From a virus (taxonomy: Duplodnaviria; Caudoviricetes): 64,000 nt of DNA. The DNA lies in the IMG/VR virus record IMGVR_UViG_3300025018_000001; one strand, 5' to 3'. A program made the position numbers and the translations under genes. The notes beneath the pieces are model-generated. The model made no database searches and was not told the DNA's origin. It saw nothing but the letters and a program-made list of their open reading frames with translations. Position 1 is the stretch's first letter. Each line of letters starts with the position of its first letter. Of the stretch, positions 4,308 to 39,936 are shown piece by piece.

Positions 4308-4592
4308 GTGCTTTACTACGGGAGCACAAAAAGAATGCCAAAAAATAATTATATAGTATACGATTGGCTAGAAGTAAGAGATGCTACTGATTCTTTGTAC
4401 AAAAGATTATTTAATGTAAAAATAGATAATTTTGTTAAAGATGTCTGTAGCAATGGGTTGCCACATGCAATGACCTCCGTATTAGCTGCAGCTTTTGTAC
4501 ATGGTTTAATCAAAGAAGATGCAGATGTTGATAAAGTTATTAATGCTTATTTACAGTTAGAAGATGTGGGATTTATCGGTGTGAAAGAGTAA
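4308..4592 (+). CDS. hypothetical protein
   Basis: ORF track. Confidence 0.5.
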   Translation: MLYYGSTKRMPKNNYIVYDWLEVRDATDSLYKRLFNVKIDNFVKDVCSNGLPHAMTSVLAAAFVHGLIKEDADVDKVINAYLQLEDVGFIGVKE

Positions 4593-4706
4593 AGATTTGT
4601 TGTGGTTAAAGATTATTTGTGCAGCTTGTGGCTGGGTTTTGTGGTCATTAATTAACTAACCTTACTAACTTACACTTAAAAGAGGTGACGTCATGTAACA
4701 TTTTAC

Positions 4707-4735
4707 TTGCATAATTAATAGAAATAGATTATAAT
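4707..4735 (+). promoter_or_regulatory. sigma70-type promoter upstream of the RNA cluster
   Basis: TTGCAT-17 nt-TATAAT. Confidence 0.7.
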
Positions 4736-4778
4736 AGAGGATATAAATGATAGTTAGAAGTAGTAGATAGTTTTAAAT

Positions 4779-4860
4779 TTCGTATTACAGGTAGTGTTAA
4801 ACATGGTTACTTCAATTGGTGAAAAATACACCTTGTTTGTTAGTTCTCCTGTAATACGAG
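4779..4860 (+). ncRNA. free-standing Y-RNA-like module RNA (F0)
   Basis: 12-bp terminal stem TCGTATTACAGG/CCTGTAATACGA; 22-nt strand TAGTGTT-AAACATGGT-TACTTC; partner ACCTTGTTT-GTTAGTTCT; small hairpin TTCA-ATTGG-TGAA. Confidence 0.7.
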
Positions 4861-4863
4861 TTC

Positions 4864-4947
4864 GCGGGGGTGGTGGAATAGGTAGACACAAGGGACTTAA
4901 AATCCCTCGGCTGCAATGCCATGAGAGTTCAAGTCTCTCCCTCCGCA
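4864..4947 (+). tRNA. trnL: tRNA-Leu(TAA)
   Basis: cloverleaf with long variable arm; AGGGA-CTTAAAA-TCCCT. Confidence 0.92.
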
Positions 4948-4960
4948 TACAATTAATAAT

Positions 4961-5033
4961 GCCGGTGTAGCTCAGTTGGAAGAGCGCCTCCCTTGTAAGG
5001 AGGATGTCACGGGTTCGATTCCTGTTACCGGCT
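4961..5033 (+). tRNA. trnT: tRNA-Thr(TGT)
   Basis: canonical cloverleaf; CCTCC-CTTGTAA-GGAGG. Confidence 0.93.
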
Positions 5034-5054
5034 CAGTATATAAAGGTGAATTCA

Positions 5055-5267
5055 ATGGGTGTTTTGAGTTGTGATAGACCTGGTTGCGATAACATAATGT
5101 GTGATAGGTATTCAGGTAAACATGGTTATTTATGTTGGGAATGTTTTAATGAATTGGTTGCTAAAAAAATACCTGTAAGCGAGTTCATGCGTACAATAAG
5201 AGCAGAAGAAGATGAGAATCCTTATACTGAAGAATTTTATAATGAAATTTTTCCAATACGAAATTAA
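5055..5267 (+). CDS. Cys-rich hypothetical protein
   Basis: ATG at 5055 (track start overlaps the tRNA); CDRPGC..CD..CWEC. Confidence 0.6.
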   Translation: MGVLSCDRPGCDNIMCDRYSGKHGYLCWECFNELVAKKIPVSEFMRTIRAEEDENPYTEEFYNEIFPIRN

Positions 5268-5270
5268 TTA

Positions 5271-5356
5271 CTGGGTGTAGCTCAGTCCGGTAGAGTACGT
5301 GCCTTGGACGCACGGAGTCGTTGGTTCGAATCCTACCTTAGGAGCAATATACCCAT
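5271..5356 (+). pseudogene. tRNA-Pro(TGG)-like element with displaced 3' acceptor strand
   Basis: D arm, anticodon arm CGTGC-CTTGGAC-GCACG and T loop present; acceptor partner TACCCAT lies 13 nt after the T arm. Confidence 0.6.
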
Positions 5357-5398
5357 AACAATAATAACAATAAGTGTATTTAAACAACAGGAGTTACC

Positions 5399-5995
5399 AT
5401 GTTTAGAATTGGTTTGGAGTTAGAAGAATTTTGTGTCAATGGAGAAAAAGAAGTTATCTTAATACCGAAAGAGTCAAATATACCACATGATGGTTGTGGC
5501 TGGCTCATCGAATACAGAAGTGATGCAAGTAAAGATATTGTTGATGCCGTGTTTAGTTTACGTGCACATGAGTATAAAACAATTGAAACGCTAAAGAAAT
5601 TTAATGTATCCGGCGCTAGAATACCTGTAATGAAACCAAATAAAACTGTACGTATGGCTGCAAGAAAACGGTTCATTAAAGGCCTTGTACAATTTAACAA
5701 CATTTATGGTCATCAGTGTCATAAGAATACTCTAGCTGAAGCAGTTGCTGCTATACATATTTCTGTAACCTTTAGTGTTGAAGGTAAACATGGTAGTATA
5801 AATAAAGTATGGGACTTTCCTGATTTTATACGTCATATGGATAAAAAATTTGCTGAAGAGATATCAGCTGCGAAAAGACGTCCAGGTTTTTATGAAATTA
5901 AAAGTGACGGTAGAGTAGAGTATAGATCTTTACCAAATAATGTTGATTTAACAAAACTGATGTATGAAGTAAATGCATATAAGTTTAAATATTAA
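5399..5995 (+). CDS. putative amidoligase / glutamine-synthetase-fold (COOH-NH2 ligase-like) protein
   Basis: IGLELE..DG.G.LIEYRS..HIS..R.PG.YE.K..G.VEYRSL pattern. Confidence 0.55.
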   Translation: MFRIGLELEEFCVNGEKEVILIPKESNIPHDGCGWLIEYRSDASKDIVDAVFSLRAHEYKTIETLKKFNVSGARIPVMKPNKTVRMAARKRFIKGLVQFNNIYGHQCHKNTLAEAVAAIHISVTFSVEGKHGSINKVWDFPDFIRHMDKKFAEEISAAKRRPGFYEIKSDGRVEYRSLPNNVDLTKLMYEVNAYKFKY

Positions 5996-6004
5996 AAGTT
6001 GTAA

Positions 6005-6139
6005 TGCTATTTAGTGTAACGGCAAGCATGCTAAAATCTCCTTATCTGTTAGTTCCCTTACGTAAAAGTAAGTGGTGTAAGATATGGTTACTTCATATCA
6101 TAAATGAGAAGACTGGTTCGACTCCAGAAATAGCTACCA
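6005..6139 (+). ncRNA. tRNA-Met(CAT)-like RNA with inserted Y-like module (element A)
   Basis: acceptor GCTATT/AATAGC + encoded CCA, D arm, T arm; ~60-nt insert 5' of TTCAT-ATCATAA-ATGAG. Confidence 0.75.
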
Positions 6140-6156
6140 AAAATTAAAATAAGGAT

Positions 6157-6304
6157 TTGATCTGTAGCTCAGTTGGCTAGAGCAGCTGTTTAAAAAAGCC
6201 TGTTTTTGTTTGTTCCTCCTTTCTCCTCCTTCGTTGTGGATGGTGTAGAAAACAGATACTTCATATGGCACAGCGGGTCGTCAGTTCGAGTCTGACCAGA
6301 TCAA
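6157..6304 (+). ncRNA. tRNA-like RNA (His-like loop remnant) with Y-like module in the anticodon loop (element B)
   Basis: TGATCTG/CAGATCA acceptor, GCTC/GAGC D stem, GCTGT/ACAGC anticodon stem enclosing ~80 nt, GTCAG-TTCGAGT-CTGAC T arm. Confidence 0.75.
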
Positions 6305-6314
6305 CAATAAAGTT

Positions 6315-6416
6315 TAAAAACATACCAGATACTAGGGTGCGGTTGGTTTCGAAAGCCAATGAATCTAGTAGAGAGCGGCGGAAAATACAGCGAGATGAGT
6401 TCGAGGTATGTTTTTA
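6315..6416 (+). ncRNA. candidate small structured RNA between elements B and C
   Basis: 12-bp perfect closing stem TAAAAACATACC/GGTATGTTTTTA; inner TACTAG/CTAGTA and TTGGTT/AGCCAA helices; GC-rich relative to flanks. Confidence 0.45.
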
Positions 6417-6429
6417 TTTAATATGTATA

Positions 6430-6563
6430 GCGGATGTAGCTCAGCTGGGAGAGCGCCTTCATCATAGACACTGTATTAGCTTATTCCCTATTTTAAATAG
6501 TGGTGTATAACACAGATACTTCAACCAAGAAGGAAGTCGATAGTTCAAGCCTATCCATCCGCG
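6430..6563 (+). ncRNA. tRNA-like RNA (Gly-like) with Y-like module in the anticodon loop (element C)
   Basis: GCGGATG/CATCCGC acceptor, D arm, CCTTC/GAAGG stem enclosing ~68 nt, GATAG-TTCAAGC-CTATC T arm. Confidence 0.75.
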
Positions 6564-6583
6564 ACTTTAAAAGGAAATATTAT

Positions 6584-6754
6584 ATGAGATACGATGAAAA
6601 TTTAACGAAAGAAGCTGTACATGAGTGGGCTATTAAACATTTTAAAGGGCCTATAGAAGTGTATGCATTTAGAAAAACTTTTGTAGCAGTATGCAAAGAA
6701 GAAGTTGTAAATGTCCACTGTGATACTGGTTCAGTTGAAGTGGAAGATAGATGA
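6584..6754 (+). CDS. small hypothetical protein
   Basis: ATG at 6584 after AAGGA; track start lies inside element C. Confidence 0.5.
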   Translation: MRYDENLTKEAVHEWAIKHFKGPIEVYAFRKTFVAVCKEEVVNVHCDTGSVEVEDR

Positions 6755-6759
6755 TATAT

Positions 6760-6832
6760 TGCGGGTTAGAGAAACGGCCATCTCGCTAGGCTCATATCCT
6801 GGAAACAACCGGTTCAACTCCGGTACCCGCTA
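6760..6832 (+). tRNA. trnM: tRNA-Met(CAT), initiator-like
   Basis: cloverleaf; 1:72 mismatch; CTAGG-CTCATAT-CCTGG. Confidence 0.85.
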
Positions 6833-6835
6833 AAT

Positions 6836-6926
6836 TTAAAACTTGAATGGTGAATAGTATGGTTACTTCTATAGACTCTTAATCTAACCAAAAACAACCT
6901 TACTAGTATGTTCCTTCAAGTTTTAA
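6836..6926 (+). ncRNA. free-standing Y-like module RNA carrying a Lys(CTT) anticodon stem-loop (F1)
   Basis: 12-bp terminal stem TTAAAACTTGAA/TTCAAGTTTTAA; TGGTGAA-TAGTATGGT-TACTTC; TAGA-CTCTTAA-TCTA; AACCTTACTA-GTATGTTCC. Confidence 0.75.
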
Positions 6927-6953
6927 TACTTGCTGATGATGTAGTTGATTTGT

Positions 6954-7027
6954 AACTAGGGTGGTGAATAGAACAGTTACTTCACTGTAAATGAAAAAAC
7001 GACTGTTCTAGTCTGTTCCCTCTAATT
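6954..7027 (+). ncRNA. free-standing Y-like module RNA carrying a Tyr(GTA) anticodon stem-loop (F2)
   Basis: TGGTGAA-TAGAACAGT-TACTTC; TTCA-CTGTAAA-TGAA; 10-bp helix TAGAACAGTT/GACTGTTCTA; GTCTGTTCC; ends ~20 nt before the ro60 start. Confidence 0.75.
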
Positions 7028-7048
7028 CGTGTTAAAGGAGAAAACACA

Positions 7049-8455
7049 ATGGCAAAGTTAAACAAAGTACCCCAGTCCCTTAGAACTCATAATGGTGCAG
7101 TAGCTAAACACATCTCCCCTGAAAACATGCTTAGACGTTCTATTATGTCTTGCTTGCTTTGGGAAAAAGAGTACTACGAAGATGGTGTTACTATCGCACA
7201 ACGAATCGAAAAATTAGTACCACTAGTTGACCCAATGGTTGTTGCAGACTTGGCGATACTTGCTCGTACTAATATGAACCTCAGGCATGTACCACTGTTA
7301 CTGGTAAACACCATGCTAAAGTTCCCTGAACACAAGAAATATGCACGAGAAGTAATAGGTAAAGTTGTTAATCGTCCTGATGAACTTGGCGAACTTCTTA
7401 CTATGTACTTTGGTGGCGGAACCAAGAATAAACCATTGGCTAACTCTTTAAAGAAGGGTCTTGCTGATGCGTTTTGTAAATTCAATGAGTACCAGTTAGC
7501 TAAGTACAACAGGGAAGAAGCAATAAAACTCCGTGATGTACTGTTCCTGACTCATGCAAAACCAGTAGACAACACTCAGGCAGTGTTGTGGAAAAAGCTT
7601 ATCGGTGGCTTCTGTAAAAATTGTGGTGAAAGTCACTATAGCAAAGATACAAAACGAGTAGAGCCTAAAACAGAGGCTTGTTCACAGTATGAAGAGCTTA
7701 CGTTGGCTACACCTGACACTTGGGAAGTCGCTTTATCTTCTGGTGGAAACAAGCGTGAACACTGGACAAGACTACTTAAAGAAGGAAAGCTTGGTGCACT
7801 GGCACTGCTTCGTAACTTACGTAATATGCTTACTGCCGGTATTGATAAACAACAAATAGCAGAAGCTTTTACAAAGACTGACCTTAGTAAAGTTCTACCT
7901 TACAGGTACATAGCTGCTGCAAAGTATGCTCCAGGTTTGGAAAATATACTGGAAGATGGTATGTTCAAGAGCTTGAAAAATGCACCTCGTATGGAAGGAC
8001 GCACAACGCTGCTTATAGATGTTTCTGGTAGCATGGATTGGGCCTTATCTGCTAAGTCTGATCTTAAGAGATTGGATGCTGCTTGTGGTTTAGCTATGCT
8101 ACTTCGTGAAATCTGTGAAGACGTAGATATATTCACATTCAGTACCAGGCTTGTGCAGGTACCACCAAGAAGAGGGTTTGCTTTAAAAGAAGCCATAGAG
8201 CGTAGTCAAGGTCATAGCTCAACTTACCTTGGTAGGTCTTTAAAAGAGTTACAAAGTAAAACAAAATGTGATAGACTTATTGTTATCACAGATGAACAAT
8301 CGAACGACGCCGTACCAGATCCAAAAGGTACTGGCTATATGATAAACGTAGCTTCTGCCAGAAATGGTGTTGGTTACGGTGCTTGGACTCATGTAGATGG
8401 TTTTAGTGAGTCTGTAGTACGTTGGATTCAGGAATTGGAAAATGATAAAAAATAA
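7049..8455 (+). CDS. rsr: Ro60/Rsr RNA-binding protein (TROVE + vWA)
   Basis: TROVE motifs (R.P.LLL, FNEYQLAKY, LRDVLFLTH, TWE..LS, ALLRNLRN, LPYRY) and vWA MIDAS DVSGSM...IVITDEQ. Confidence 0.93.
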   Translation: MAKLNKVPQSLRTHNGAVAKHISPENMLRRSIMSCLLWEKEYYEDGVTIAQRIEKLVPLVDPMVVADLAILARTNMNLRHVPLLLVNTMLKFPEHKKYAREVIGKVVNRPDELGELLTMYFGGGTKNKPLANSLKKGLADAFCKFNEYQLAKYNREEAIKLRDVLFLTHAKPVDNTQAVLWKKLIGGFCKNCGESHYSKDTKRVEPKTEACSQYEELTLATPDTWEVALSSGGNKREHWTRLLKEGKLGALALLRNLRNMLTAGIDKQQIAEAFTKTDLSKVLPYRYIAAAKYAPGLENILEDGMFKSLKNAPRMEGRTTLLIDVSGSMDWALSAKSDLKRLDAACGLAMLLREICEDVDIFTFSTRLVQVPPRRGFALKEAIERSQGHSSTYLGRSLKELQSKTKCDRLIVITDEQSNDAVPDPKGTGYMINVASARNGVGYGAWTHVDGFSESVVRWIQELENDKK

Positions 8456-8477
8456 GTTATGGTAGATGTGTAATACT

Positions 8478-8515
8478 AGTAGCTAGAAACTGGCAATTTT
8501 TAGCTACTTTAATTT
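8478..8515 (+). terminator. intrinsic terminator after ro60
   Basis: AGTAGCTA/TAGCTACT hairpin followed by T-rich tract. Confidence 0.6.
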
Positions 8516-8532
8516 TTGTGTAGTCAACATGG

Positions 8533-8561
8533 TTGACAATCATTGATTATGTGTGTATTAT
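8533..8561 (+). promoter_or_regulatory. sigma70-type promoter with inverted repeat over -35
   Basis: TTGACA-17-TATTAT; GTCAAC-ATG-GTTGAC palindrome 8523-8537. Confidence 0.65.
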
Positions 8562-8572
8562 GTATTTACTAT

Positions 8573-8712
8573 TTTAGTATTTCTGCTGGCAACAGATTTA
8601 CTAAGCTTTTTAAGACTGGAAAACAATATAACAAGATGGCCGTCCCTTTTATCGAATAGCTGCATCGCGCTGCGAAAGATCCGGGACCTCCTAGTTTGAG
8701 TTCGAAAGTTTA
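8573..8712 (+). ncRNA. candidate structured leader or small RNA
   Basis: hairpins TTAGTA/TACTAA, GTCCC/GGGAC, CCTAGTT/AACTAGG directly after the promoter. Confidence 0.35.
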
Positions 8713-8783
8713 AGCAACTAGGTTGAATGGGTAGGGGTGGGGATTTTTTATCATTTATTATTAATTTAAATATTTGGGGGTGT

Positions 8784-9110
8784 ATGGAAAGAGATCTTTG
8801 TGACTTGATGGCGAACGGTGGTGATGACTTTGGTAGCCAGTATGACTATAATTCAGATGAATGTACTTCAAGAGAATTTGGTAGTCGAGATCTAGGTACA
8901 GCAATGACTTTTGCAGAGATGCTCGCAGAAGAAGAATCATTGTCCGGTTTAATGGAGTCAATGGATGCACACGACCCAGAAGAATTGTTGGAAGCTATGG
9001 AAATAGCCCAAGACAAAGATAAAGTAACACGTGTTAGTCTTAAGAGTAGGAATACGGATGCTCCTGCTTTTGAACAATACGTTTATGCAAAATGTGGACT
9101 AGTTAGATAA
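8784..9110 (+). CDS. acidic hypothetical protein
   Basis: likely ATG 8784 after GGGGG SD. Confidence 0.6.
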   Translation: MERDLCDLMANGGDDFGSQYDYNSDECTSREFGSRDLGTAMTFAEMLAEEESLSGLMESMDAHDPEELLEAMEIAQDKDKVTRVSLKSRNTDAPAFEQYVYAKCGLVR

Positions 9111-9295
9111 TGCCTATTTACAATTACGAGTGTTCTGTCTGTAAAAAAAAGTATGAATCTATACAACCGATGGACACTAAAACAATACAATGTACTTGTG
9201 GTGAAACAGCTAAAAAAGTACCGTCTCTAACTAATTTTCAACTAAAAGGTGGAGGTTGGGCAAAAGATGGATACAGTAGCGGTGGTAAAAAGTAG
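9110..9295 (+). CDS. FmdB-family zinc ribbon protein
   Basis: MPIYNYECSVC...C.CG..A.K...F.LKG.GW..DGY. Confidence 0.85.
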   Translation: MPIYNYECSVCKKKYESIQPMDTKTIQCTCGETAKKVPSLTNFQLKGGGWAKDGYSSGGKK

Positions 9296-9584
9296 TTGCG
9301 AATTTGAAAATAATATGTTAAACTTACTTATCGGTAAGAGGTATTCAATAACACTATTCGCACATGACACGCCAATGGTTGGTACAATTAAATCAAAAGA
9401 AGCTAAGGATAAATCAAATCATACTTATTGGTTTTCTTGGTGGGATGAAGCACGAAAACAAAATGTAGGACATTACATATTTGATAGAGGTTATGCTAAT
9501 ACCAAAAGAACAATTGTATATAATCAATATAGTATACGTACATGTAAAGAAGTATGTCCTAACATTGACCCTAAAAAAGATTAA
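9249..9584 (+). CDS. hypothetical protein
   Basis: ORF; true start probably downstream of 9295. Confidence 0.5.
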   Translation: MEVGQKMDTVAVVKSSCEFENNMLNLLIGKRYSITLFAHDTPMVGTIKSKEAKDKSNHTYWFSWWDEARKQNVGHYIFDRGYANTKRTIVYNQYSIRTCKEVCPNIDPKKD

Positions 9585-9590
9585 GGAGAC

Positions 9591-10115
9591 GTGATGTTGC
9601 TCGTCGAAAAAGCAATGCTATTTGCTATTGAAGCACATAAAGGTACATTTAGAAAATTTGATGGTACAGCTTATATAAAACATCCTTTTTCTGTCATGGG
9701 GATTATGACTGAATACTCGGATGACCCTGCTGTACTAGCGGCTTGTCTACTACATGACACAGTCGAAGATATTGATGATATTACATTAGAAACAATGCAC
9801 GATACATTTGGTGAACGAGTGGCGAGTAACGTTTTTTATGTTACAGAAAAAGCTACTAAAGCTGACGGTAGTCGTAGAGTACGAAAAGAAATTGACCGTA
9901 TTCATTACAGTAAAGGTACAGTAGATTCACAAAATATAAAAGTAGCGGATATGTTGGATAATATTCCTGGTATTGTATTATGCGACCCTAAATTTGCACC
10001 TATATACTTAGAAGAAAAAAGACAGCTTTTATGGAGCTTAACAAAAGCAGTTCCAGATATAAAAGCTAAAGCAGAAAGACTAATAAACCAGATGTACTTA
10101 ATTCTAGGTAATTAG
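9591..10115 (+). CDS. HD-domain hydrolase, Mesh1/SpoT (p)ppGpp-hydrolase-like
   Basis: A..FA..AH.G..RK..G..YI.HP..V...LLHDTVED...KVADMLDN. Confidence 0.85.
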   Translation: MMLLVEKAMLFAIEAHKGTFRKFDGTAYIKHPFSVMGIMTEYSDDPAVLAACLLHDTVEDIDDITLETMHDTFGERVASNVFYVTEKATKADGSRRVRKEIDRIHYSKGTVDSQNIKVADMLDNIPGIVLCDPKFAPIYLEEKRQLLWSLTKAVPDIKAKAERLINQMYLILGN

Positions 10116-10121
10116 TTTATA

Positions 10122-10257
10122 GGCCTGTTAGCTCAATCGGTTAGAGCATTAAGCTAAACCTTATTAGCTAGTTCCCTATTTAATTATAGCGGTGTATAAT
10201 ATGGTTACTTCTCTTATGATAAAAGAAAGATGGTAGGTTCGAATCCTCCACAGGCCA
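10122..10257 (+). ncRNA. tRNA-Ile(GAT)-like RNA with inserted Y-like module (element D)
   Basis: GGCCTGT/ACAGGCC acceptor, D arm, T arm; insert with CGGTGTA-TAATATGGT-TACTTC before TCTT-ATGATAA-AAGA. Confidence 0.75.
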
Positions 10258-10476
10258 AATTAAATTATTAACAAATGAATAAGGTCTCTGGTTGAGTAAT
10301 TCTAGATAGGGTGGTTCAATTCCGCCCGCCTTGAAAAATGTTGGGGTTGATGTGTTAGTCCTCCATGTATAGCTCCTAGGTAAGCTTACAGAAGCACTCA
10401 AGTGTAAACTGCAACTCTTCGTGGTTATCAGACTAAACCACGTTAACTTAATAGGGAGATTCCAAATAAGAAAAAC

Positions 10477-11199
10477 ATGAAAGAACCAAATGAGATAGAT
10501 ATTCTCGACTTGAATTATCCTTTACTTGTGAAATTTAAGGAGAAGTGTCCTGGTACTTTTGCACATAGCAAGAAATTAGCAGAAGTATTAGAAAAAATAG
10601 GTACTGCGCTTGGTCTTGATTCCAAAGTATTAAAAACTATAGGTCTGTATCATGATGTAGGTAAAATGGTAACACCTGTTTTATATTCTGAGAATCAACC
10701 AATAGATTTTAATCCACATGATAACCTGGAGCCTTGGATTTCATTTGCTCTAGTAGCTGGTCATGTAGCGCACTCAGTACAAATACTACTAAACGACCCT
10801 AACTTTGATGATGAGTTGGTAAAAGTATGCTCTCAACATCATGGCACAACTCTAGCTTTGTGCTTCTTTAAGAAAAGTGGTAGTGAAAATGAAGAGGAGT
10901 ATAGATACACAACACTTCGTCCACAATCTTTTGAAGCCGCATTACTAATGATTTGTGACCATCTAGAAGCACGTATTCGTTCTGAAATGAATAGCGGTAG
11001 GATAACAGATAAAGAGGGTATTGAAAATATAGTAGAGATAGTTTTCAATAGTTTAGTAGACGATGGTCAATTCGATGATGTAGCCGTACCGAGTTTTAAA
11101 ATATTACGGACACTGAAAAGTACACTGAAATTAGAATTTTCAGAGTTGTTCGAAGACCATAAGCGTATAGACTACGCACAAGATACAGTAAAGAAATAA
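10477..11199 (+). CDS. stand-alone HDIG-type HD domain protein (PgpH/YqfF-like catalytic domain)
   Basis: PGTFAHS...YHDVGK...ENQ...NPHD.L.P..S...HV...QHHGT...YRY...P.S.EAALLMICD. Confidence 0.8.
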   Translation: MKEPNEIDILDLNYPLLVKFKEKCPGTFAHSKKLAEVLEKIGTALGLDSKVLKTIGLYHDVGKMVTPVLYSENQPIDFNPHDNLEPWISFALVAGHVAHSVQILLNDPNFDDELVKVCSQHHGTTLALCFFKKSGSENEEEYRYTTLRPQSFEAALLMICDHLEARIRSEMNSGRITDKEGIENIVEIVFNSLVDDGQFDDVAVPSFKILRTLKSTLKLEFSELFEDHKRIDYAQDTVKK

Positions 11200-12396: not shown

Positions 12397-13290
12397 ATGA
12401 AAGAACAATCCGCAAATGTAGGCGTTGTAATTGGTCGTTTCCACGTAGACGATCTCCACGAAGGTCACCTAAATCTACTTTCTACAGTAGAGAACTCACA
12501 CAGTAGACTTATTATTTTTGTAGGTCTATCTCACAACAAATGTACTTATAATAACCCTTTAGATTTTGAATCAAGGCGGTCTATGTTACAAGCACATTAT
12601 CCAAAAGCAACTATTCTTTATATTAGAGACGTACATGACGATGTGATCTGGTCCAAAGATCTCGATAATAAAATATTGAACTTAATAGGGCCTAATCAAA
12701 CCGTATGTCTTTATGGTAGTAGGGATTCTTTTATTCCGTATTATCATGGAAAATTTCCAGTTAAAGAACTTGTACAAGAAACTTATTTCTCAGGCACCGA
12801 AGTACGCAAACAAGTAGCTATTAGATCCAATTCTACTAGAGACTTTAGAGCAGGTGCTATATGGGCGTTAGGTAATCAGTATGCATCCCCTAATTTTACT
12901 ATTGATGTTGCTATATTCAATGATGATTTTACTCGTGTCCTTCTCGGTCGCAAAATAAGAGAATCAAAATATAGATTCATTGGCGGCTTTATTCAAAACT
13001 CAGAGAAGATATCTGATGCCGTTGCAAGGGAAGCGTTGGAAGAAACTCATCTCGTACTTAATAATATTACTTACATTGATAGTTTCCCGTCTACTGACTG
13101 GCGTTACAAAGGTGAAAGAGATAAGATTACTACTATACTCCATACTGCTACAATTAAATCAGGCACACCTGAACCAGATGATGATATACATGAGCTTCGT
13201 TGGTTTGACTTCAACGGTGAAGTAATGGAACATCTCGTCCCAGAGCATCTTGAAATGATGAATCAGTTGTTACTCAAATCACGGAGTTAA
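12397..13290 (+). CDS. nadM: bifunctional NMN adenylyltransferase / ADP-ribose pyrophosphatase (NadM-Nudix)
   Basis: GRF...HEGH, NPLDFE.R, GSRDSF, SGTEVR; Nudix box GG...E....AVAREALEET. Confidence 0.92.
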   Translation: MKEQSANVGVVIGRFHVDDLHEGHLNLLSTVENSHSRLIIFVGLSHNKCTYNNPLDFESRRSMLQAHYPKATILYIRDVHDDVIWSKDLDNKILNLIGPNQTVCLYGSRDSFIPYYHGKFPVKELVQETYFSGTEVRKQVAIRSNSTRDFRAGAIWALGNQYASPNFTIDVAIFNDDFTRVLLGRKIRESKYRFIGGFIQNSEKISDAVAREALEETHLVLNNITYIDSFPSTDWRYKGERDKITTILHTATIKSGTPEPDDDIHELRWFDFNGEVMEHLVPEHLEMMNQLLLKSRS

Positions 13291-13298
13291 TTATAATA

Positions 13299-13496
13299 AT
13301 GATAAGAAAAACTGTATGCTTACCTATAAAAGTACCAGAAGGTAAGTACTGTTGGGAATATAACGTAGCTGGTACCTGTGATTACCATGATAATGAAGGT
13401 GGTACATCTGTATGTACATTACACTTTGATGTTAAAGAAACAAAGAAAGGCGTTATTAAGGACCCACTTTGCGCCTCATTAACATTGGTGAAATGA
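13299..13496 (+). CDS. Cys-rich hypothetical protein
   Basis: short ORF. Confidence 0.5.
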   Translation: MIRKTVCLPIKVPEGKYCWEYNVAGTCDYHDNEGGTSVCTLHFDVKETKKGVIKDPLCASLTLVK

Positions 13497-13559
13497 CTGG
13501 CAAAAGACATATATGGTCATGAAATAACAGCAGATAGTGCCACAGAACTTGAAGGGCTT

Positions 13560-13772
13560 ATGTGTTGGAATAATCATAGGGTATTCAGCCTTATAAAAGA
13601 TAGACATGGTGTATTCTGGTCTGGATGGGATATAAACAGACATTATCCACACACATGGGAGCATCATGCTGACAATCTTGGTAGCGACCCTGAAGAAGCT
13701 AAAAGGTTACACAAAATAGAAACAGATAGAATACGAGCTAAGATTGATGAAGATCCATCAAGATGCTGGTAA
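13560..13772 (+). CDS. hypothetical protein
   Basis: short ORF; start uncertain. Confidence 0.45.
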   Translation: MCWNNHRVFSLIKDRHGVFWSGWDINRHYPHTWEHHADNLGSDPEEAKRLHKIETDRIRAKIDEDPSRCW

Positions 13773-13802
13773 TAGAGTAGTATAATATAAATCCTAGATG
13801 CG

Positions 13803-15170
13803 TTGATGCAAGGGAGAAACAACATGAAAAGAAGAAGCTTAGTATTTAAAACGGATTCCTATAAATCAAGTCACTGGTTACAGTTCCCTGAGAATAGAGG
13901 AAGTTACTACTACATAGAATCACGTGGTGGTGCAGAAGAAGTACTCTTCTTTGGTCTACAAGCAGTCATCAAAAGAATACTTTCAAAAATGCCTACAAAG
14001 AAAGAAGTTAAAAAAGCTGCTAAATTCTGGGCAAACCACGGAGTTGCTTTCAATAAGAAAGGTTGGATGAAACTTGTTAAACTTGGTTATTATCCGATTG
14101 AAATTCACGCTGTGGAAGAAGGTAAATTAATAAAAACAAAAGAAGTACAAGTAACAATTGAGTCTACTGATGACCGATTTGGTTGGCTTCCTGGTTGGAT
14201 TGAGACGACGTTGCTCCAGCTATGGTATCCTACTACAGTTGCGACGAAGCAATTCGAGTGTAAGAAAGTTATACTTGAGTACTTAAAGAAAACTGGTACC
14301 CCTGAAGATGCACCATTCAAACTACACTCATTTGGTTATAGAGGTGTTAGTTCTGAGGAGTCTGCTGGCATAGGTGGATCTGCTGAGTTACTTACATCCA
14401 TGGGTACTGACACTGTTGCTGGTATACTTGAAGCACAAGACATGTACAATACTAACGCTATGCTTGGCTTTAGTATAAATGCAGCGGAACACAGTACTAT
14501 TACTGCCTGGGGAAGAGAGTTTGAGCGTGATGCATACGAGAATATGCTCAATCAATTTCTTAAGCCTGGGGCTATTGTAGCAGTTGTGTCTGATAGCTAT
14601 GACCTAAGTAATGCTGTACTGAAGTATTGGGGTGGTGAGTTTAAAGAACGTATAATTCAATCAGGTGGTACATTGGTAGTGCGGCCTGATTCCGGTGAGC
14701 CATCTGAGATAGTACTTAGAACTCTTGAACAACTTGGCGAATGCTTTGGTACTGAAGTAAATGCTAAAGGATATAAAGTTCTTCCAAGTTACGTAAGAGT
14801 GATCCAAGGCGATGGCCTTAATGGTGCTGACGATATACGTAAAGTATTAGAAGTTATAACAGAGGCCGGTTGGTCCGCTGACAACGTAGCATTTGGTATG
14901 GGTGGTGGATCATTACAACAAGTCAACCGTGACACCTACAAATATGCTATGAAGATGTCTGCCATTTTCAAAAAGAACAAGGATGGCCAATTTGCTTGGT
15001 CTGATGTATTTAAAGAACCTGCTGATGCACCGTGGAAAAATAGTAAGAAAGGTAGATTTGATAAATTAAATCTACCACTTATTTGGAAAGATGGTAAGTT
15101 TTTTAAACAGTACACATTTGAAGAAGTGCGTGCTAACGCAATGGGTGAGCTTGAACGTAAGACAAGTTAA
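13803..15170 (+). CDS. nadV: nicotinamide phosphoribosyltransferase
   Basis: TDSYK.SH, LWYP.TVAT, LH.FG.RG, AAEHS, VSDSYD, VRPDSG, IQGDG, FGMGG. Confidence 0.95.
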   Translation: MMQGRNNMKRRSLVFKTDSYKSSHWLQFPENRGSYYYIESRGGAEEVLFFGLQAVIKRILSKMPTKKEVKKAAKFWANHGVAFNKKGWMKLVKLGYYPIEIHAVEEGKLIKTKEVQVTIESTDDRFGWLPGWIETTLLQLWYPTTVATKQFECKKVILEYLKKTGTPEDAPFKLHSFGYRGVSSEESAGIGGSAELLTSMGTDTVAGILEAQDMYNTNAMLGFSINAAEHSTITAWGREFERDAYENMLNQFLKPGAIVAVVSDSYDLSNAVLKYWGGEFKERIIQSGGTLVVRPDSGEPSEIVLRTLEQLGECFGTEVNAKGYKVLPSYVRVIQGDGLNGADDIRKVLEVITEAGWSADNVAFGMGGGSLQQVNRDTYKYAMKMSAIFKKNKDGQFAWSDVFKEPADAPWKNSKKGRFDKLNLPLIWKDGKFFKQYTFEEVRANAMGELERKTS

Positions 15171-15319
15171 CTCAGAGGGTGCAGAAGGACTATAGTAACT
15201 GACAAGATTATATGAATTCGAGTGCCTGATGGTGTTGCCGTGGAGGTTATGTATTATGGGAGTCTGTCAAACTCTTTAACTGAGGATAACGGTAACACCA
15301 CATTTTTTAAGGAGACTAT

Positions 15320-15526
15320 ATGGGATTTGCAACATTGCCAGAAAAGAAAAAGATAAAACCACGATATAAGAATACGCTTGTATGTCAAGAGTGTGGTACT
15401 GAATTTGGAGCCAACGTTACGTTTGTGCGAGGTATATCAGAGATACGTGGAACAGACTTTGAAAGATTTACACCACTAACTAAGATAGAAAAAGGCACAT
15501 GTCCCATGTGTAGTAATAATGTATAA
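15320..15526 (+). CDS. zinc-ribbon hypothetical protein
   Basis: CQECG...CPMC; AGGAG SD. Confidence 0.6.
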   Translation: MGFATLPEKKKIKPRYKNTLVCQECGTEFGANVTFVRGISEIRGTDFERFTPLTKIEKGTCPMCSNNV

Positions 15527-15716
15527 GCGTAGCGGTGGGACTACAGACATAGAAGTAGTAAATCATATTGACTATATTGTTGTTGAGCCAAAAGTTAACC
15601 CTAAAAAGAAAATAAAAACATCTATGTATAAAGAGTCTAAAATAGCCCGTCACACAACAGTTGGTGGAAAGGGTATCGTAGGTAGGATATACAATAAAAA
15701 AGGTAAGAAGCTATGA
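15519..15716 (+). CDS. basic hypothetical protein
   Basis: translationally coupled ORF. Confidence 0.5.
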   Translation: MYKRSGGTTDIEVVNHIDYIVVEPKVNPKKKIKTSMYKESKIARHTTVGGKGIVGRIYNKKGKKL

Positions 15717-16162
15717 TGCAGACATTAAATTGTGATATACTACACGGCTTAAAAGCAGACCAAAAAACAGTTATACTGCACGGTTGTAATTGTTTTAATA
15801 CGATGGGTGCAGGTATTGCAAAGTATTTACGTGGTAAATTTCCAAACGTATATGCAGTAGATTGTGCAACAAAGCGTGGCGACAAGAATAAATTAGGCAC
15901 ATGTAGTAGGGCAGTAATAAGTCATAACTTACATATTCTAAATTGTTATACTCAGTACAACTACGGAAGAGAGAAGAAGCTATATGCAAATTATATAGCT
16001 ATTGATGAATGTTTTAAAAGAATTGCTGCTGATTATGACACTACTTGGGAAATACGTATGCCTAGAATAGGTTGTGGCCTTGCCGGTGGTGATTGGGAAG
16101 TAATTGGTGCTTTGGTTGTTAATAATTTTAATAAGCATAACACAAACATATATTTTAAATAG
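15713..16162 (+). CDS. macrodomain protein (ADP-ribose binding/hydrolase)
   Basis: ILHGCNCFNTMGAGIA...MPRIGCGLAGG.W. Confidence 0.9.
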   Translation: MMQTLNCDILHGLKADQKTVILHGCNCFNTMGAGIAKYLRGKFPNVYAVDCATKRGDKNKLGTCSRAVISHNLHILNCYTQYNYGREKKLYANYIAIDECFKRIAADYDTTWEIRMPRIGCGLAGGDWEVIGALVVNNFNKHNTNIYFK

Positions 16163-16170
16163 GACTTAAC

Positions 16171-16983
16171 ATGTTGACAGAAATTAAAAAGAAAGAATTT
16201 GCTAATGGTTGTGTATATCTTTATGAGACTAAAGATAATTACCCCTTAGAAGTTACAGATACATTTTTACCAGCTTATACAAAAGATTCTATAGGTACTC
16301 ATCAAAATTTCCTTAAGGATGGTAACCTTGGTAGTAGAGATGAACGTTGGATGATTGGTGTATCAACTATGTCAGGATGTCCAGTAGGATGTAGATTTTG
16401 CGCAACAGCTAGTATGAAAAGATGTAGGAATCTTAAATCCCCTGAGATAGTAGCGCAAGTAGTTGAAATGGTGGCAAAACAAAAGAAAGAGTTAGTTGAA
16501 GGTTTGGTACTTGGTAAACGTGAAGGAGAGTTTAAAATAAACTACACACGTATGGGCGAACCATTTCTAAATATAGATGAAGTTAAAGCTGCTATTAAAG
16601 CAATTGATACTATACTTGCTGGTACTAAAGTACATCATTACATTTCCACTATTGGTGTAAAAGGCGCCGATTATTCATGGATTAAAGATAATATTACCTT
16701 ACAATTCTCTGTACATTCTTTTAATGAAGAGTACCGTGACTGGTTAATTCCTTTCAAGAACAAAATATCTTTGGAAGAAATGGGAAAGGTCAGGACAGGA
16801 AGTAAACTAAAAACAACTATCAACCTTACTCTAGCTAGAGCACGCGATTTTGATATTGATGCTTTGAAAAAGTATTTTGACCCTGAATATTTTTTTATTA
16901 AGATAAGCCCTATCAATGAAAATGATGTGTCAAAAAGTAATCAAATGGGTAGCGGGATTATTGGTCAGCATAATATAGTTTAA
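16171..16983 (+). CDS. RlmN/Cfr-like radical SAM enzyme lacking the C-terminal ACGQL segment
   Basis: VSTMSGCPVGCRFCAT, RMGEPFLN, ISTIG, SVHS motifs align with RlmN; ends ~25 aa after KISPIN. Confidence 0.8.
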   Translation: MLTEIKKKEFANGCVYLYETKDNYPLEVTDTFLPAYTKDSIGTHQNFLKDGNLGSRDERWMIGVSTMSGCPVGCRFCATASMKRCRNLKSPEIVAQVVEMVAKQKKELVEGLVLGKREGEFKINYTRMGEPFLNIDEVKAAIKAIDTILAGTKVHHYISTIGVKGADYSWIKDNITLQFSVHSFNEEYRDWLIPFKNKISLEEMGKVRTGSKLKTTINLTLARARDFDIDALKKYFDPEYFFIKISPINENDVSKSNQMGSGIIGQHNIV

Positions 16984-16988
16984 TATTA

Positions 16989-17294
16989 TTGGAGGGTACA
17001 TGTATGGCAATAGATCTTAAATCAGAAGTAGCCTTATTAAAAAAGTTAAAGAAAAGATTTTCGAGCAACGACTTATATTTTATGTCAATACAAGACATGT
17101 ATGAGGAGGGCTTGATTACACAAAAAGCTTTTAGATCAATTACTAATTGGTTAGCTAATATAGGTCAACCTAAAACAAGTGTAAGTATAAAAAGTAATGT
17201 AGGTCGAAATAGGGTAATACCTAGAAAAGAAATTGTACAAGAAGTTGACCCATGTAGTCATGGTGGAGGAAGCTTTAGAAATACATCATGTTAA
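16989..17294 (+). CDS. hypothetical protein with Cys/Gly-rich C-terminus
   Basis: ends DPCSHGGGSFRNTSC. Confidence 0.6.
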   Translation: MEGTCMAIDLKSEVALLKKLKKRFSSNDLYFMSIQDMYEEGLITQKAFRSITNWLANIGQPKTSVSIKSNVGRNRVIPRKEIVQEVDPCSHGGGSFRNTSC

Positions 17295-18174
17295 ATACAA
17301 CGTTTACAAATAAGTTACAGTTTAGAAAAAAGAGTTGTAGTTTAAATGAAAAAAATGGTATTGATATACCTCACAATTACGTTAATATTTATGTAAAAAT
17401 TACAAGTAATTGTAATGCTAAATGTAACTTTTGTGTATATCGTAACAAAACACATAATACAAAGGAACAGTTTGACTTTATTAAGTTTGAAAACATGTTA
17501 TTGTTATTAGAAGCAGAAGACATACACATACATAAAGTGTCTTTTACGGGTGGTGAACCTTCAATGTATTGTAATAGGCTTGCAAAATGTTTAAACAGTA
17601 TAGCAAAGTTAAAATACAAACCATTTATTGTAGTAAATTCTAACGGATTTAGACTTAATTTGTTACAGCAATTCAAAGAGATTGACAGTATATCCCTTTC
17701 AAGGCATACACTAACTGACATAAGTAACTGTAGTGTATTTGGTACATTATCTGTTGCAAAAATCGCAGATATGAAACAAAATGTTAGTAACAAGATACAC
17801 TTGACCTGTAATCTAATAAAAGGACGTGTTGACTCAGAAAAAACTATAATTGATTACTTAGAAAAAGCGGCATCTCTTGGTATATATATGATGTTGGTTT
17901 TGTTAGTCTTATGAAGGTAAATGATTTTTGTACTAAACACCACGTAGATTTCAACGATATAGAATTTAAAGATCCATCCATAGTATGTAATAAGGAATGG
18001 ACTTATTCCGATATATGTAGGTGTAAAAATTTTATATACTTACCTGAGGAAGGAACTAAAGTAGTTAAATTTTACTCGCGCTACAGGTGTAGGAATGACG
18101 CAGAAGCTGAGAGTAACTACGTCTTTGATGATGGATACTTAAAAGATAATTTTAGTGGTAAAATAATTTACTGA
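17288..18174 (+). pseudogene. radical SAM protein split by a 2-nt slip in an (AT)n tract
   Basis: CNAKCNFC, SFTGGEP in 17288..17914; removing AT at ~17881-17889 fuses ..LGIY-DVGFVSLMKVND.. to ORF 17911..18174. Confidence 0.7.
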
Positions 18175-18184
18175 GGAGGCTATT

Positions 18185-18382
18185 ATGGCAGAAGAAATAA
18201 GAAGACAAACTACTGATGGTAGGATGGTTACCAAAGAAGAATACATTAAAGAAGTTAAAGAAGCACTTATAAAAATTCAACTAGCTGAAGCTGGTTATGA
18301 CTATGCTATAGCTGTTGCTACGGATGCTGAGGTTAAAGCTGGTGCAGCTTGTGGACAATTAGCTATCATTAATGAGAGTTAA
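18185..18382 (+). CDS. small protein equivalent to the RlmN C-terminal catalytic-Cys segment
   Basis: own GAGGAGG SD; ends LAEAGYDYAIAV...AGAACGQLAII (cf. RlmN DAACGQL). Confidence 0.75.
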   Translation: MAEEIRRQTTDGRMVTKEEYIKEVKEALIKIQLAEAGYDYAIAVATDAEVKAGAACGQLAIINES

Positions 18383-18707
18383 TATGAAAAAAGTTTATAT
18401 ATCTTCTAAATACAGCGAAGGTGACAAAGATACTAATGTACAAGCACAAGTAACAGCTGGAAACTTACTAATAGATCGAGGTTTTAATCCCTTTGTACCA
18501 CTTTTGACACATTATTTAGATAAAGACCAGCCAAGACCTTATAATTACTGGCTAGGTGCCTTGATTGAGTGGTTAAAATTGTGTGATTGTTTATTAAGAC
18601 TTGAAGGAGCAAGCCCAGGAGCTGATATAGAAGTAATGATGGCAAAGCGTTTAGGTATACCAGTCTTCTATTCTATTGAAGAACTACTTAGCCATTATAA
18701 AAAGTAA
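18372..18707 (+). CDS. DUF4406/nucleoside deoxyribosyltransferase-like protein
   Basis: KVYISS.Y...GFNPFVP...L..CD.L..L.G.S.GA..E. Confidence 0.65.
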   Translation: MRVNMKKVYISSKYSEGDKDTNVQAQVTAGNLLIDRGFNPFVPLLTHYLDKDQPRPYNYWLGALIEWLKLCDCLLRLEGASPGADIEVMMAKRLGIPVFYSIEELLSHYKK

Positions 18708-18718
18708 AGGAGGAGGCC

Positions 18719-19342
18719 ATGTTTAAATACCCAAGGACGTATCATTTACCATGGTCTCCTGGCGTAACAAAAGATGATAAGATAATAAAATCTACAGAGC
18801 ACTTTGTAGGTAAAAGAGTAATAGTAACAGAAAAATTAGATGGTGAATGTACTACAATTAAAAGAGGTCGTATACATGCACGCTCTATGGATTCTAAAGA
18901 TCATATATCAAGACACTGGATTAAAAATCAGTATGGTTATTTAACTAACGTTTTGAATACTGCTACTAGGGTATGTGGTGAGAATGTATTTGCTGAACAT
19001 TCTATTGCTTATCAAAATCTTATCAGTTTTTTTTACGCCTTCTCAGTATGGAATTTTTCAACTTGTTTATCATGGGATACTACACTTGAAGAATTAAAAT
19101 TTTTAAACATAGCACATGTACCAGTTATATATGATGGTATTTGGGACGAAGACCTTATAAAAAATATACCTGTTACCCCTACTGAAAAAGGTGATATGGA
19201 GGGGTATGTTGTAAGAATGGCTAGTTCTTTTGATATAATAGATTTTGACTATAATATTGCTAAGTATGTTAGAGCCGGGCATGTACAAACAGATGAGCAC
19301 TGGTTAAGTAAACCTGTTGTAAAAAATAAATTAAAGATATAA
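18719..19342 (+). CDS. ATP-dependent RNA ligase (Rnl2-like)
   Basis: KYPRT.HLPWS, TEKLDGE, CGEN, EGYVVR, KYVR. Confidence 0.88.
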   Translation: MFKYPRTYHLPWSPGVTKDDKIIKSTEHFVGKRVIVTEKLDGECTTIKRGRIHARSMDSKDHISRHWIKNQYGYLTNVLNTATRVCGENVFAEHSIAYQNLISFFYAFSVWNFSTCLSWDTTLEELKFLNIAHVPVIYDGIWDEDLIKNIPVTPTEKGDMEGYVVRMASSFDIIDFDYNIAKYVRAGHVQTDEHWLSKPVVKNKLKI

Positions 19343-19353
19343 AGGAATTTAAT

Positions 19354-19788
19354 ATGTCAGATATACCAGCTGGTTACCAGCTTCGGGTCACTACGTGGGA
19401 AAATGATGGTGACCACTATAGTACAGAAATAACCTCTGGGTTAACTAAGGAAGACACAAGGTTTCTTATTTCTATTGCAGAACAGTTTAGTAAAAAAGGT
19501 AAATATGGGAATGACTTCATAAAAGACACTGATTTAATTGAAGTTATATCAAATGCTTTAGAAAGTAGCTCAGGTATAACATTACTAATGCGAGCTGATT
19601 GGCAAGAAGCTTTACAAAATAGTATTGATGAGGGTGATGGTGCTTATTATTTACATGAAATACTAAGTGATACTTTACTAAGCTGCCCTCAAGAGGACTA
19701 TGGTTCTGGGTTCTGTAGAAATGTGGAAACAATAGAAGTTTATTATATACCTGAAGATATTACTGAGGTAACAAAAGAATTTATTTAA
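19354..19788 (+). CDS. hypothetical protein
   Basis: acidic 144 aa ORF. Confidence 0.65.
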   Translation: MSDIPAGYQLRVTTWENDGDHYSTEITSGLTKEDTRFLISIAEQFSKKGKYGNDFIKDTDLIEVISNALESSSGITLLMRADWQEALQNSIDEGDGAYYLHEILSDTLLSCPQEDYGSGFCRNVETIEVYYIPEDITEVTKEFI

Positions 19789-19796
19789 AGGAGTTA

Positions 19797-39864: not shown

Positions 39865-39936
39865 TGCCTCCAGAGGGAATCGAACCCCCGTCACACTATT
39901 TTAGAGGTAGTTGTTCCACCATTGAACTATGAAGGC
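39865..39936 (-). tRNA. amber suppressor tRNA (anticodon CTA)
   Basis: GCCTTCA/TGGAGGC acceptor, GTTC/GAAC D stem, loop CT-CTA-AA, GGGGG-TTCGATT-CCCTC T arm; 31:39 mismatch. Confidence 0.8.

Follow-up and report, generated by a model that had tools for sequence, protein, structure and literature searches.

Predicted Ro60-bound Y RNAs in two circularly permuted layouts around a phage ro60 gene

Introduction

Y RNAs are bound by Rsr on the 5' strand of their stem, and they serve to tether Ro60 to PNPase. In YrlA, one class of these RNAs, the chain ends lie in the Ro60-docking stem, the acceptor-like stem is a closed loop, and the T arm stands 5' of the D arm. The YrlA of Salmonella Typhimurium bears tRNA modifications made by TruB and DusA, and that of Mycobacterium smegmatis is cleaved by RNase P and gains CCA in vivo while it is bound to Rsr (PMC4201824). 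A dimeric tRNA transcript has been proposed as the origin of YrlA. In phages, the Ro60 protein of phiLo interacts in vitro with phage Y RNAs and with host PNPase (PMC12135203), and a Ro60-like protein of Bas63 counters the ppl defence (PMC11482910). Here, seven RNA elements around a ro60 gene are described in a 64-kb stretch of viral DNA, the IMG/VR record IMGVR_UViG_3300025018_000001 (Duplodnaviria; Caudoviricetes), which is referred to in its whole length as the window throughout this paper.

Each element contains one copy of a module that, judged by the sequence comparisons given below, is the Ro60-binding stem of YrlA/YrlB-class Y RNAs and of an already known kind. We consider it likely, at a probability of about 75%, that each of the seven elements is the gene of a Ro60-bound, YrlA/YrlB-class Y RNA, the predicted binding, maturation and tethering included. 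The module, the partnership with Ro60 and the minimal forms of the RNA are already known; the novel part is a single chain in tRNA order with an open acceptor, of which no description was found in the searchable literature. Such RNAs bear on two questions about YrlA, namely the purpose of its tRNA-like domain and its origin from tRNA.

The ro60 gene and the seven elements

The Ro60 gene of the window is located as follows:

7049..8455, + strand: ro60 (Rsr-like), encoding a TROVE domain and then a vWA domain with the MIDAS motif DVSGS

The product matches Pfam TROVE, the HEAT-repeat ring domain (1.8e-22), and vWA_Ro60 (9.7e-06), the MIDAS pattern DxSxS being read as DVSGS. Among solved structures, it comes closest to that of Ro60 from Thermus phage phiLo (9KOP/9L5Y, E 1.9e-27). 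With both the TROVE and the vWA/MIDAS features present, this open reading frame is a Ro60/Rsr homolog. A close relative of the window phage was absent among the deposited phage genomes searched. The related loci used here include L001, a 228-kb contig whose Ro60 is 78% identical to that of the window, and L002, whose Ro60 is 68% identical.

The seven predicted Y RNA genes are listed below with their supporting matches, where R1 is a covariance model of the hairpin-closed module, RF00005 is the tRNA model of Rfam, lengths are in base pairs (bp) or nucleotides (nt), and the YrlA-like profile is described further on:

4779..4860, + strand: F0, minimal open-ended Y RNA (13-bp terminal stem; AG:CU for GG:CC)
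6005..6139, + strand: A, tRNA-ordered Y RNA (R1 62.7 bits; swapped-order match to the YrlA-like profile)
6158..6305, + strand: B, canonical tRNA body with the module (ARAGORN intron mode; R1 62.5 bits; YrlA-like profile)
6430..6563, + strand: C, canonical tRNA body, its anticodon stem enclosing the module (ARAGORN intron mode; R1 65.2 bits; YrlA-like profile)
6836..6926, + strand: F1, minimal Y RNA (10-bp terminal stem; distal hairpin loop CUCUUAA; ortholog in L001)
6955..7025, + strand: F2, minimal Y RNA (V hairpin loop CUGUAAA; orthologs in L001 and L002)
10122..10257, + strand: D, tRNA-ordered Y RNA (RF00005 41.3 bits; ARAGORN; R1 70 bits)

The original prediction, made from the letters of this DNA, was that seven RNAs share a 22-nt strand, YRGTGWW-N9-TACTTC. 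This was confirmed: the pattern has exactly seven matches in the window, all on the + strand (starts 4792, 6073, 6241, 6501, 6848, 6962 and 10190), against a mean of 0.07 in the shuffled window, and none of 100 shuffles reached seven; allowing two mismatches added background only. The 9-nt partner box GYNWRTTCY that had been proposed was likewise found in all seven copies, and the N9 segment of every copy pairs with its own partner at 7-9 of the nine positions, with the expected U-U mismatch adjacent to GG/CC in F0, A, F1 and D. All copies share the strand of ro60 and lie inside the distance of about 4 kb that is taken for YrlA-class RNAs; the farthest are F0, at 2.2 kb on the upstream side, and D, at 1.7 kb on the downstream side.

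From its distal end inward, the module begins with a stem of free sequence, which is followed by a bulged pyrimidine (U or C), a GG:CC pair (AG:CU in F0) and an asymmetric internal loop with 5' UGWW opposite 3' GYNWRUU. Next comes a helix of nine positions, again of free sequence and with 7-9 pairs formed, and finally the unpaired UACUUC. The nine-position helix occurs in two flavours, AUGG, whose position 6 is a U-U mismatch (F0, A, F1 and D), and ACAG with a C-A mismatch at position 4 in some copies.

Covariation in the module

Repeats of this kind might be DNA-level or cis-acting signals (operators, terminators, recombination sites) and not RNA genes, and their intergenic position, with F2 directly abutting the ro60 ribosome-binding site on its 5' side, would suit such a role. 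The pattern of substitution speaks for RNA. An alignment was made of 14 hairpin-closed modules, of which the window supplied four and relatives ten. Paired cells make up 89% of it, a share that drops to 40-50% if the 3' partner is shifted along by 1-3 columns; changes on both sides of the helix occur at 12 of 15 pairs, and the observed covariation score was reached by none of 500 shuffles, which bears out the covariation claimed earlier. Across 286 distinct modules with 224 distinct N9 segments, pairing with the module's own partner averages 8.37 pairs against 5.63 with shuffled partners, and the GG:CC pair itself covaries (258 GG:CC, 21 AG:CU, 7 discordant). Orthologs in L001, L002 and L027 show compensatory changes; those of A, in L001 and L002, replace AGAU/AUCU with UAAU/AUUA and exchange the hairpin for unrelated sequence that still pairs. 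Because the changes are compensatory base pairs and not sequence conservation, the module is a structured RNA. Given also that the strand bias follows ro60, that four copies sit inside complete tRNA bodies, and that the elements are homologous to experimentally detected YrlA RNAs (PMC4201824), the explanation by cis-acting signals is barely credible.

Minimal open-ended RNAs

F0, F1 and F2 have the GGUG strand first, and their open ends are paired in a terminal stem of 9-13 bp, so that the Ro-binding stem is built from the 5' and 3' ends of the RNA; the helix is closed by a small loop, and T and D arms are absent from all three. Folding thus agrees with the prediction that these copies have ends open as in a Y RNA, and F0, F1 and F2 are minimal YrlB-like Y RNAs whose ends pair as in classical Y RNAs. 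In F0, which has an ortholog in L002, the N9 helix with its U-U mismatch leads to a small distal loop.

tRNA-ordered RNAs

In A, B, C and D, the order of strands is partner strand, hairpin, GGUG strand, all within a tRNA body. The tRNA arms follow in normal order and the acceptor is open, and the docking stem is closed by a hairpin instead of being formed from the RNA's own ends. B, C and D have the parts of a tRNA, namely a 7-bp acceptor, a D arm that bears GG and a T arm with a UUCRA loop, and ARAGORN in intron mode reports them as cloverleaves with inserts of 52-73 nt (B 73, C 61). Counted on the sequence, the 7-nt anticodon loop of B is replaced by an 80-nt insert that bears the module, and an insert of about 77 nt takes the place of the anticodon loop of C, for which no ortholog was found in L001. 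The RF00005 alignment of D spans a 75-nt insertion; D lies after an HD-domain gene, carries the module after its D arm and ahead of a hairpin whose loop is AUGAUAA, and has orthologs in L001 and L027. In A, the acceptor of 7 bp contains a U1-U72 mismatch and A-CCA is encoded; a weak D stem is followed by the hairpin-closed module, the V hairpin and a good T arm. CCA is encoded by A of the window, A of L002, L259 and L310.

The two topologies of the original prediction are therefore supported by the folds of F0-F2 and, for the tRNA bodies, by ARAGORN and RF00005. The accompanying claim that A-D carry the module in the anticodon arm of the tRNA needs correction: the hairpin-closed module does lie in a tRNA body of normal order, but a 5-bp anticodon stem encloses it in B and C only. 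In A and D it stands after the D arm and ahead of a hairpin whose 7-nt loop is of the anticodon type, and none of A-D has an anticodon loop at the normal position.

A tRNA body with an insert at this place raises the question of introns. According to this explanation, A-D would be intron-containing tRNA genes from which the module is excised, perhaps with the aid of Ro60, before phage RNA ligases join the halves into working tRNAs, and the released intron may itself be the Y RNA. The canonical tRNA bodies of B, C and D are in line with it, as are the two RNA-ligase family genes about 10 kb downstream and the exact replacement of the 7-nt loop in B; moreover, a contig from a cold-spring metagenome carries an ordinary tRNA with B's anticodon stem and the loop CUUGUAA (Thr UGU), with the joint at 6189/6270. 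However, the B and C junctions, read on the sequence, have no bulge-helix-bulge, Rfam gave no group I or other intron family at E<=10, no bacterial tRNA splicing endonuclease is known (bioRxiv 10.1101/312249), and removal of the insert leaves no consistent 7-nt loop in B or C. Furthermore, the module lies outside the anticodon-type hairpin in A, D, L253, L259, L262, L272 and L310, and hundreds of RNAs other than tRNAs carry this module as well. The intron explanation is accordingly very unlikely.

The docking module in other Ro60 loci

Linkage to Ro60 was surveyed in 240 loci with a Ro60 alignment, 80 each sampled from at least 500 viral, at least 592 metagenome and at least 579 genome loci, the last being bacterial metagenome-assembled genomes. 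The module was found in 184 of the 240 (68/80 viral, 49/80 metagenome, 67/80 bacterial), and of its 345 copies, 342 share the strand of ro60, most of them standing 100-700 nt upstream, which answers the earlier proposal to look for co-occurrence with TROVE genes. Pattern scans of IMG/VR listed mostly chance matches and became informative once N9 pairing was required: among the matches listed, modules with at least 8 of 9 pairs adjoin a TROVE gene wherever flanking sequence exists, with the exceptions L027 and L119, and most modules with 7 pairs are not beside a TROVE gene.

In the 286 modules, the base after GG (5' strand, position 4) is C 139 times and U 147 times. The published motif is GNCGAAN0-1G, from which the GGUGWA of the window (AGUGUU in F0) is one base off; about half of the surveyed copies carry the published GNCGAA, GGCGAA followed by G being GNCGAAN0-1G, and the UUAC or AUAC of the modules is the published conserved YUAY (PMC4201824). 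In the permuted relatives, the two strands are about 100 nt apart, with the T arm, a closed acceptor-like stem and the D arm between them. The Rfam YrlA model (RF02553) aligns to these RNAs over its full length at 37-42 bits and scores the permuted relatives at 30-42 bits overall, below its gathering threshold of 69 bits, and the module falls on its Ro-binding stem. In Caulobacter phage CcrColossus, which has been cited as a carrier of Y RNA-like RNAs, the module stands five times upstream of the TROVE gene, with GGCGUA. An annotated 'tRNA-Gln' of CcrColossus (L461 2131-2198; JX100810.1 109217-109284) overlaps the 5' half of a YrlA-like RNA, and in it ACCACCA follows the equivalent of the acceptor 3' strand, as in the RNase P-cleaved YrlA of M. 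smegmatis.

The linkage to TROVE genes, the alignment to the RF02553 stem in relatives and the CcrColossus copies together uphold the view of the module as a docking stem of the Y RNA/YrlA type. They do not uphold the view of it as peculiar to this phage: a very large and already known family shares it as the usual docking stem. The module defines a large Y RNA subfamily that the Rfam YrlA model misses (below 45 bits against the threshold of 69), and some members are annotated as tRNA genes, the CcrColossus 'tRNA-Gln' being an example.

Circular permutation and distribution of the layouts

A profile was built from 24 permuted YrlA-like RNAs of other loci. Native A-D and their counterparts match it in two pieces with the order swapped: profile positions 2-67 (docking strand, V hairpin, T arm) correspond to the 3' part of the RNA and positions 75-137 (D arm, partner) to its 5' part. 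Such a swapped-order, two-piece match is the signature of circular permutation. After permutation in silico, in which the acceptor ends were joined and the hairpin opened, the pieces became colinear, with a single full-length match for B of L001, B of L002, L253 and L262. The two topologies are thus true circular permutations of one architecture, as had been proposed; in both layouts the tRNA body stands on the UACUUC side of the docking stem, and only the position of the chain ends differs.

Within the window's own clade, the tRNA-ordered layout is found in the window, L001, L002 and the D ortholog of L027. Other viral carriers are L253, L259, L262, L272 with two tandem copies, and probably L223; L310 is a metagenome carrier, and L400, from an acidobacterial metagenome-assembled genome, has a form without the D arm. 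ARAGORN reports a tRNA with an insert in L253, L259, L262, L272 (twice) and L310. The R1 model does not separate the topologies cleanly: junctions of tandem open-ended units, including F1|F2 of the window, score 23-47 bits, and true hairpin-closed copies mostly score at least 50 bits, so the cases within the junction range (L259 44.9, L223 35.9 and the first unit of L272 30.9) were settled by inspection of the sequence. The tRNA-ordered calls that a regular expression gave for L241, L258, L263, L273, L279 and L370 were rejected, each combining the 3' strand of one unit with the next unit's 5' strand.

On a FastTree phylogeny of 227 Ro60 proteins, the tRNA-ordered layout needs five changes, of which at least four are forced by well-supported branches, and each carrier is nested among loci with permuted YrlA. 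The occurrence in at least four further Ro60 lineages makes the layout, though rare, recurrent, and the nesting means that it arose or was retained several times. The suggestion that the non-permuted form is a missing link is not supported in the sense of an ancestor of YrlA, and repeated interconversion fits at least as well as ancestry of the tRNA order. A simple route exists in both directions, since a tandem duplicate of either form holds the other form across its junction, and A and B stand in tandem, 20 nt apart. A dimeric YrlA-like RNA made of the GGUG strand of A and the partner of B was considered and rejected; its spacing of 103 nt fits, but the helix is not credible, with four Watson-Crick and three wobble pairs against seven Watson-Crick pairs with A's own partner. 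The acceptor halves of that dimer would also be unpaired, and the compensatory changes in L001 track A's own partner.

Proposed function

By homology to Rsr-binding YrlA, we infer that the seven RNAs dock on the phage Ro60, the shared module serving as docking site for the Ro60 ring. A-D appear from their sequences to share the three-dimensional plan of YrlA, with the chain ends moved from the docking stem to the acceptor stem. Host tRNA enzymes (RNase P, and RNase Z or exonucleases) probably release them from polycistronic transcripts, after which they would gain CCA unless it is already encoded, giving a nuclease-resistant handle in the shape of a tRNA. As proposed for other Y RNAs, this handle may tether Ro60 to a partner that binds tRNA or degrades or repairs RNA, for which host PNPase and the phage's own RNA ligases are candidates. 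The guide, decoy and repair-tether roles named in the original prediction are all hypothetical.

Several points weigh against this reading. To our knowledge, even YrlA, which has been studied closely, has no known partner for its tRNA-like handle. In the window, GNCGAA does not occur in its literal form, U standing in place of C. RF02553 gave no match at E<=10 within 4500-10600 and so none to any of the seven copies, nor did any Y RNA family of Rfam match this region; the full-length match of all forms to that model, which the original prediction had named as a blow to novelty, was thus not found, and membership in the YrlA class rests on the comparisons made here. The D ortholog of L027 is located on a 161-kb fragment, estimated as 61% complete, that is without a Ro60 gene. 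Finally, the sequencing runs listed as containing the window phage are aquifer and cold-spring metagenomes, all of them DNA; contigs from four runs showed DNA-type cover only, and short contigs of a relative came from two wastewater libraries labelled RNA-Seq that are probably DNA.

A different use can be imagined from the V hairpin. The RNAs could mainly be decoys or sensors for tRNA-targeting host defences, in which anticodon nucleases would be offered loops of the anticodon type (F1 CUU, F2 GUA, D GAU) or entire tRNA bodies, while Ro60 stabilised the RNAs or reported on their state. In favour of this, about 40% of 294 modules have, after UACUUC, a hairpin whose 7-nt loop is of the anticodon type, as against 6% of shuffled sequences; GUN triplets are over-represented (26/116), genes for RNA ligase and NAD salvage lie close by, and the Bas63 Ro60-like protein acts against ppl (PMC11482910). 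On the other hand, this hairpin is the known V arm of bacterial YrlA, and bacteria are not so attacked by their own nucleases; F0, B and C have no anticodon-type loop; and a 7-nt U-turn loop may simply have been inherited from a tRNA ancestor. For the V-arm loop, which is seen in bacteria and phages alike, inheritance from the tRNA anticodon arm fits at least as well as a decoy, and a mainly decoy or sensor function is quite improbable. The commonest V-arm loops in the 294 modules (loci L218-L457) are CUGUUAA, CUGCUAA, CUCUUAA and CUGUAAA. GUN triplets are the anticodons of queuosine tRNAs.

A bolder version of the Y RNA reading, which we regard as unlikely in the form stated, is that the tRNA-ordered Y RNAs mature to a free CCA end and engage the tRNA machinery (CCA-adding enzyme, synthetases, EF-Tu, anticodon nucleases, tRNA-repair ligases) while carrying Ro60, and that duplication and deletion flip the order between tRNA and YrlA. 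If true, tRNA surrogates tethered to Ro60 would sense, absorb or repair attacks on the tRNAs of host and phage, and tandem duplication with deletion would be a route by which YrlA originated from a tRNA that had first gained a Ro-docking arm.

The recurrence of the layout matters for the Y RNA reading itself. Natural single-chain, tRNA-ordered Y RNAs with an open 7-bp acceptor, sometimes with CCA, in at least five separate Ro60 lineages would imply that the fold is needed and the position of the chain ends is not. They would also be ready substrates on which to test processing by RNase P and RNase Z, the addition of CCA, aminoacylation and the binding of partners.

Genomic context

Further features of the RNA island are:

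4864..5034, + strand: ordinary tRNA-Leu(UAA) and tRNA-Thr(UGU) (ARAGORN; RF00005 56.9 and 66.9 bits)
8478..8508, + strand: terminator-like hairpin 3' of ro60
8533-8561: strong promoter-like site after the ro60 terminator (TTGACA, 17-nt spacer, TATTAT)

Normal tRNA genes are interspersed among the Y RNA genes (ARAGORN). The tRNA-Leu(UAA) and tRNA-Thr(UGU) genes stand immediately 3' of F0; they are probably co-transcribed with it and act as its processing neighbours. A tRNA-Pro(UGG)-like sequence at 5271-5345 has good D, anticodon and T arms and a poorly paired acceptor stem; RF00005 covers it at model positions 7-64 only, and its counterpart in L001 is a normal tRNA-Pro. Farther away, at 39865-39936 on the - strand and among other tRNAs of the phage, is a tRNA with anticodon CUA, of the amber suppressor type (ARAGORN label Pyl; RF00005 60 bits).

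Other non-coding stretches were noted in the island. An extra structured RNA lies between B and C at 6316-6415 (L001 5403-5497), with a terminal stem of 11 bp and, around UUUCGAAAG, an inner hairpin; comparison of the window with L001 shows covariation in both stems, and the fold z-score is -2.8. It contains no docking module and had no match in Rfam. The region 8533-8760 has about 190 nt of non-coding sequence 3' of the promoter-like site, ending in a G-rich stretch and a T run; its 3' half is kept in L001 (7690-7750), and its overall fold is no better than that of shuffled sequence. It is a possible leader or small RNA. Right after D, at 10283-10335, stands a short tRNA-like piece consisting of a T arm and a 5-bp closing stem, and about 130 nt of conserved non-coding sequence separate it from the HD-domain gene at 10477 (region 10283-10470); at L001 9255-9400 the conserved stretch alone is present, and the tRNA-like piece was not seen there.

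Downstream, at 12397-20942, the Pfam families include NUDIX (with a weak cytidylyltransferase-like match), NAMPT, a macro domain and two radical-SAM proteins. The two RNA-ligase family genes (18719-19342 and 19797-20942) thus have genes for NAD salvage, macro-domain and radical-SAM proteins as neighbours.

Comparison with known systems

The closest known system is YrlA (RF02553; Chen et al. 2014, PMC4201824; bioRxiv 10.1101/312249). It resembles the elements of the window in its location beside Ro60 on the same strand, in a docking stem made of a GNYGWA strand, an inner helix and then YUAY/UACUUC, in its tRNA-like D and T arms, and in the order of its body, which runs docking stem, V hairpin, T arm, acceptor, D arm, docking stem. 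A-D differ from it in that the 7-bp acceptor is open and sometimes ends in CCA, the docking stem is hairpin-closed, and the arms follow the normal tRNA order. The CCA-tailed YrlA of M. smegmatis, once cleaved by RNase P, is, as predicted for A-D, a Ro60-bound, tRNA-shaped RNA with an open acceptor (PMC4201824); it is, however, derived from a permuted precursor cut in two pieces with both stems open, whereas each of A-D is one chain encoded in tRNA order.

F0-F2 are most like the YrlB/Yrn2-type RNAs and Yrl1 and Yrl2 of phiLo (PMC12135203), which also have an end-paired stem, an internal loop that holds the Ro motif and, at the distal end, a small loop, and whose genes also lie just upstream of ro60. 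The differences are GGUGWA in place of CGAA and distal loops that are of the anticodon type in two of the three.

Two further systems share single features. The predicted b7a-tRNA (Burroughs and Aravind 2016, as cited in bioRxiv 10.1101/312249) is a non-coding RNA very similar to a true tRNA that sometimes stands beside Rsr, and the description of it in that preprint reports no Ro-docking stem such as A-D carry. The circularly permuted tRNA genes of red algae and archaea, as cited in the same preprint, are a natural permutation of the tRNA fold; they are described there as precursors of working tRNAs that are repaired by splicing enzymes. In contrast, both orders represented by A-D and YrlA are apparently end products, each with a protein-docking arm.

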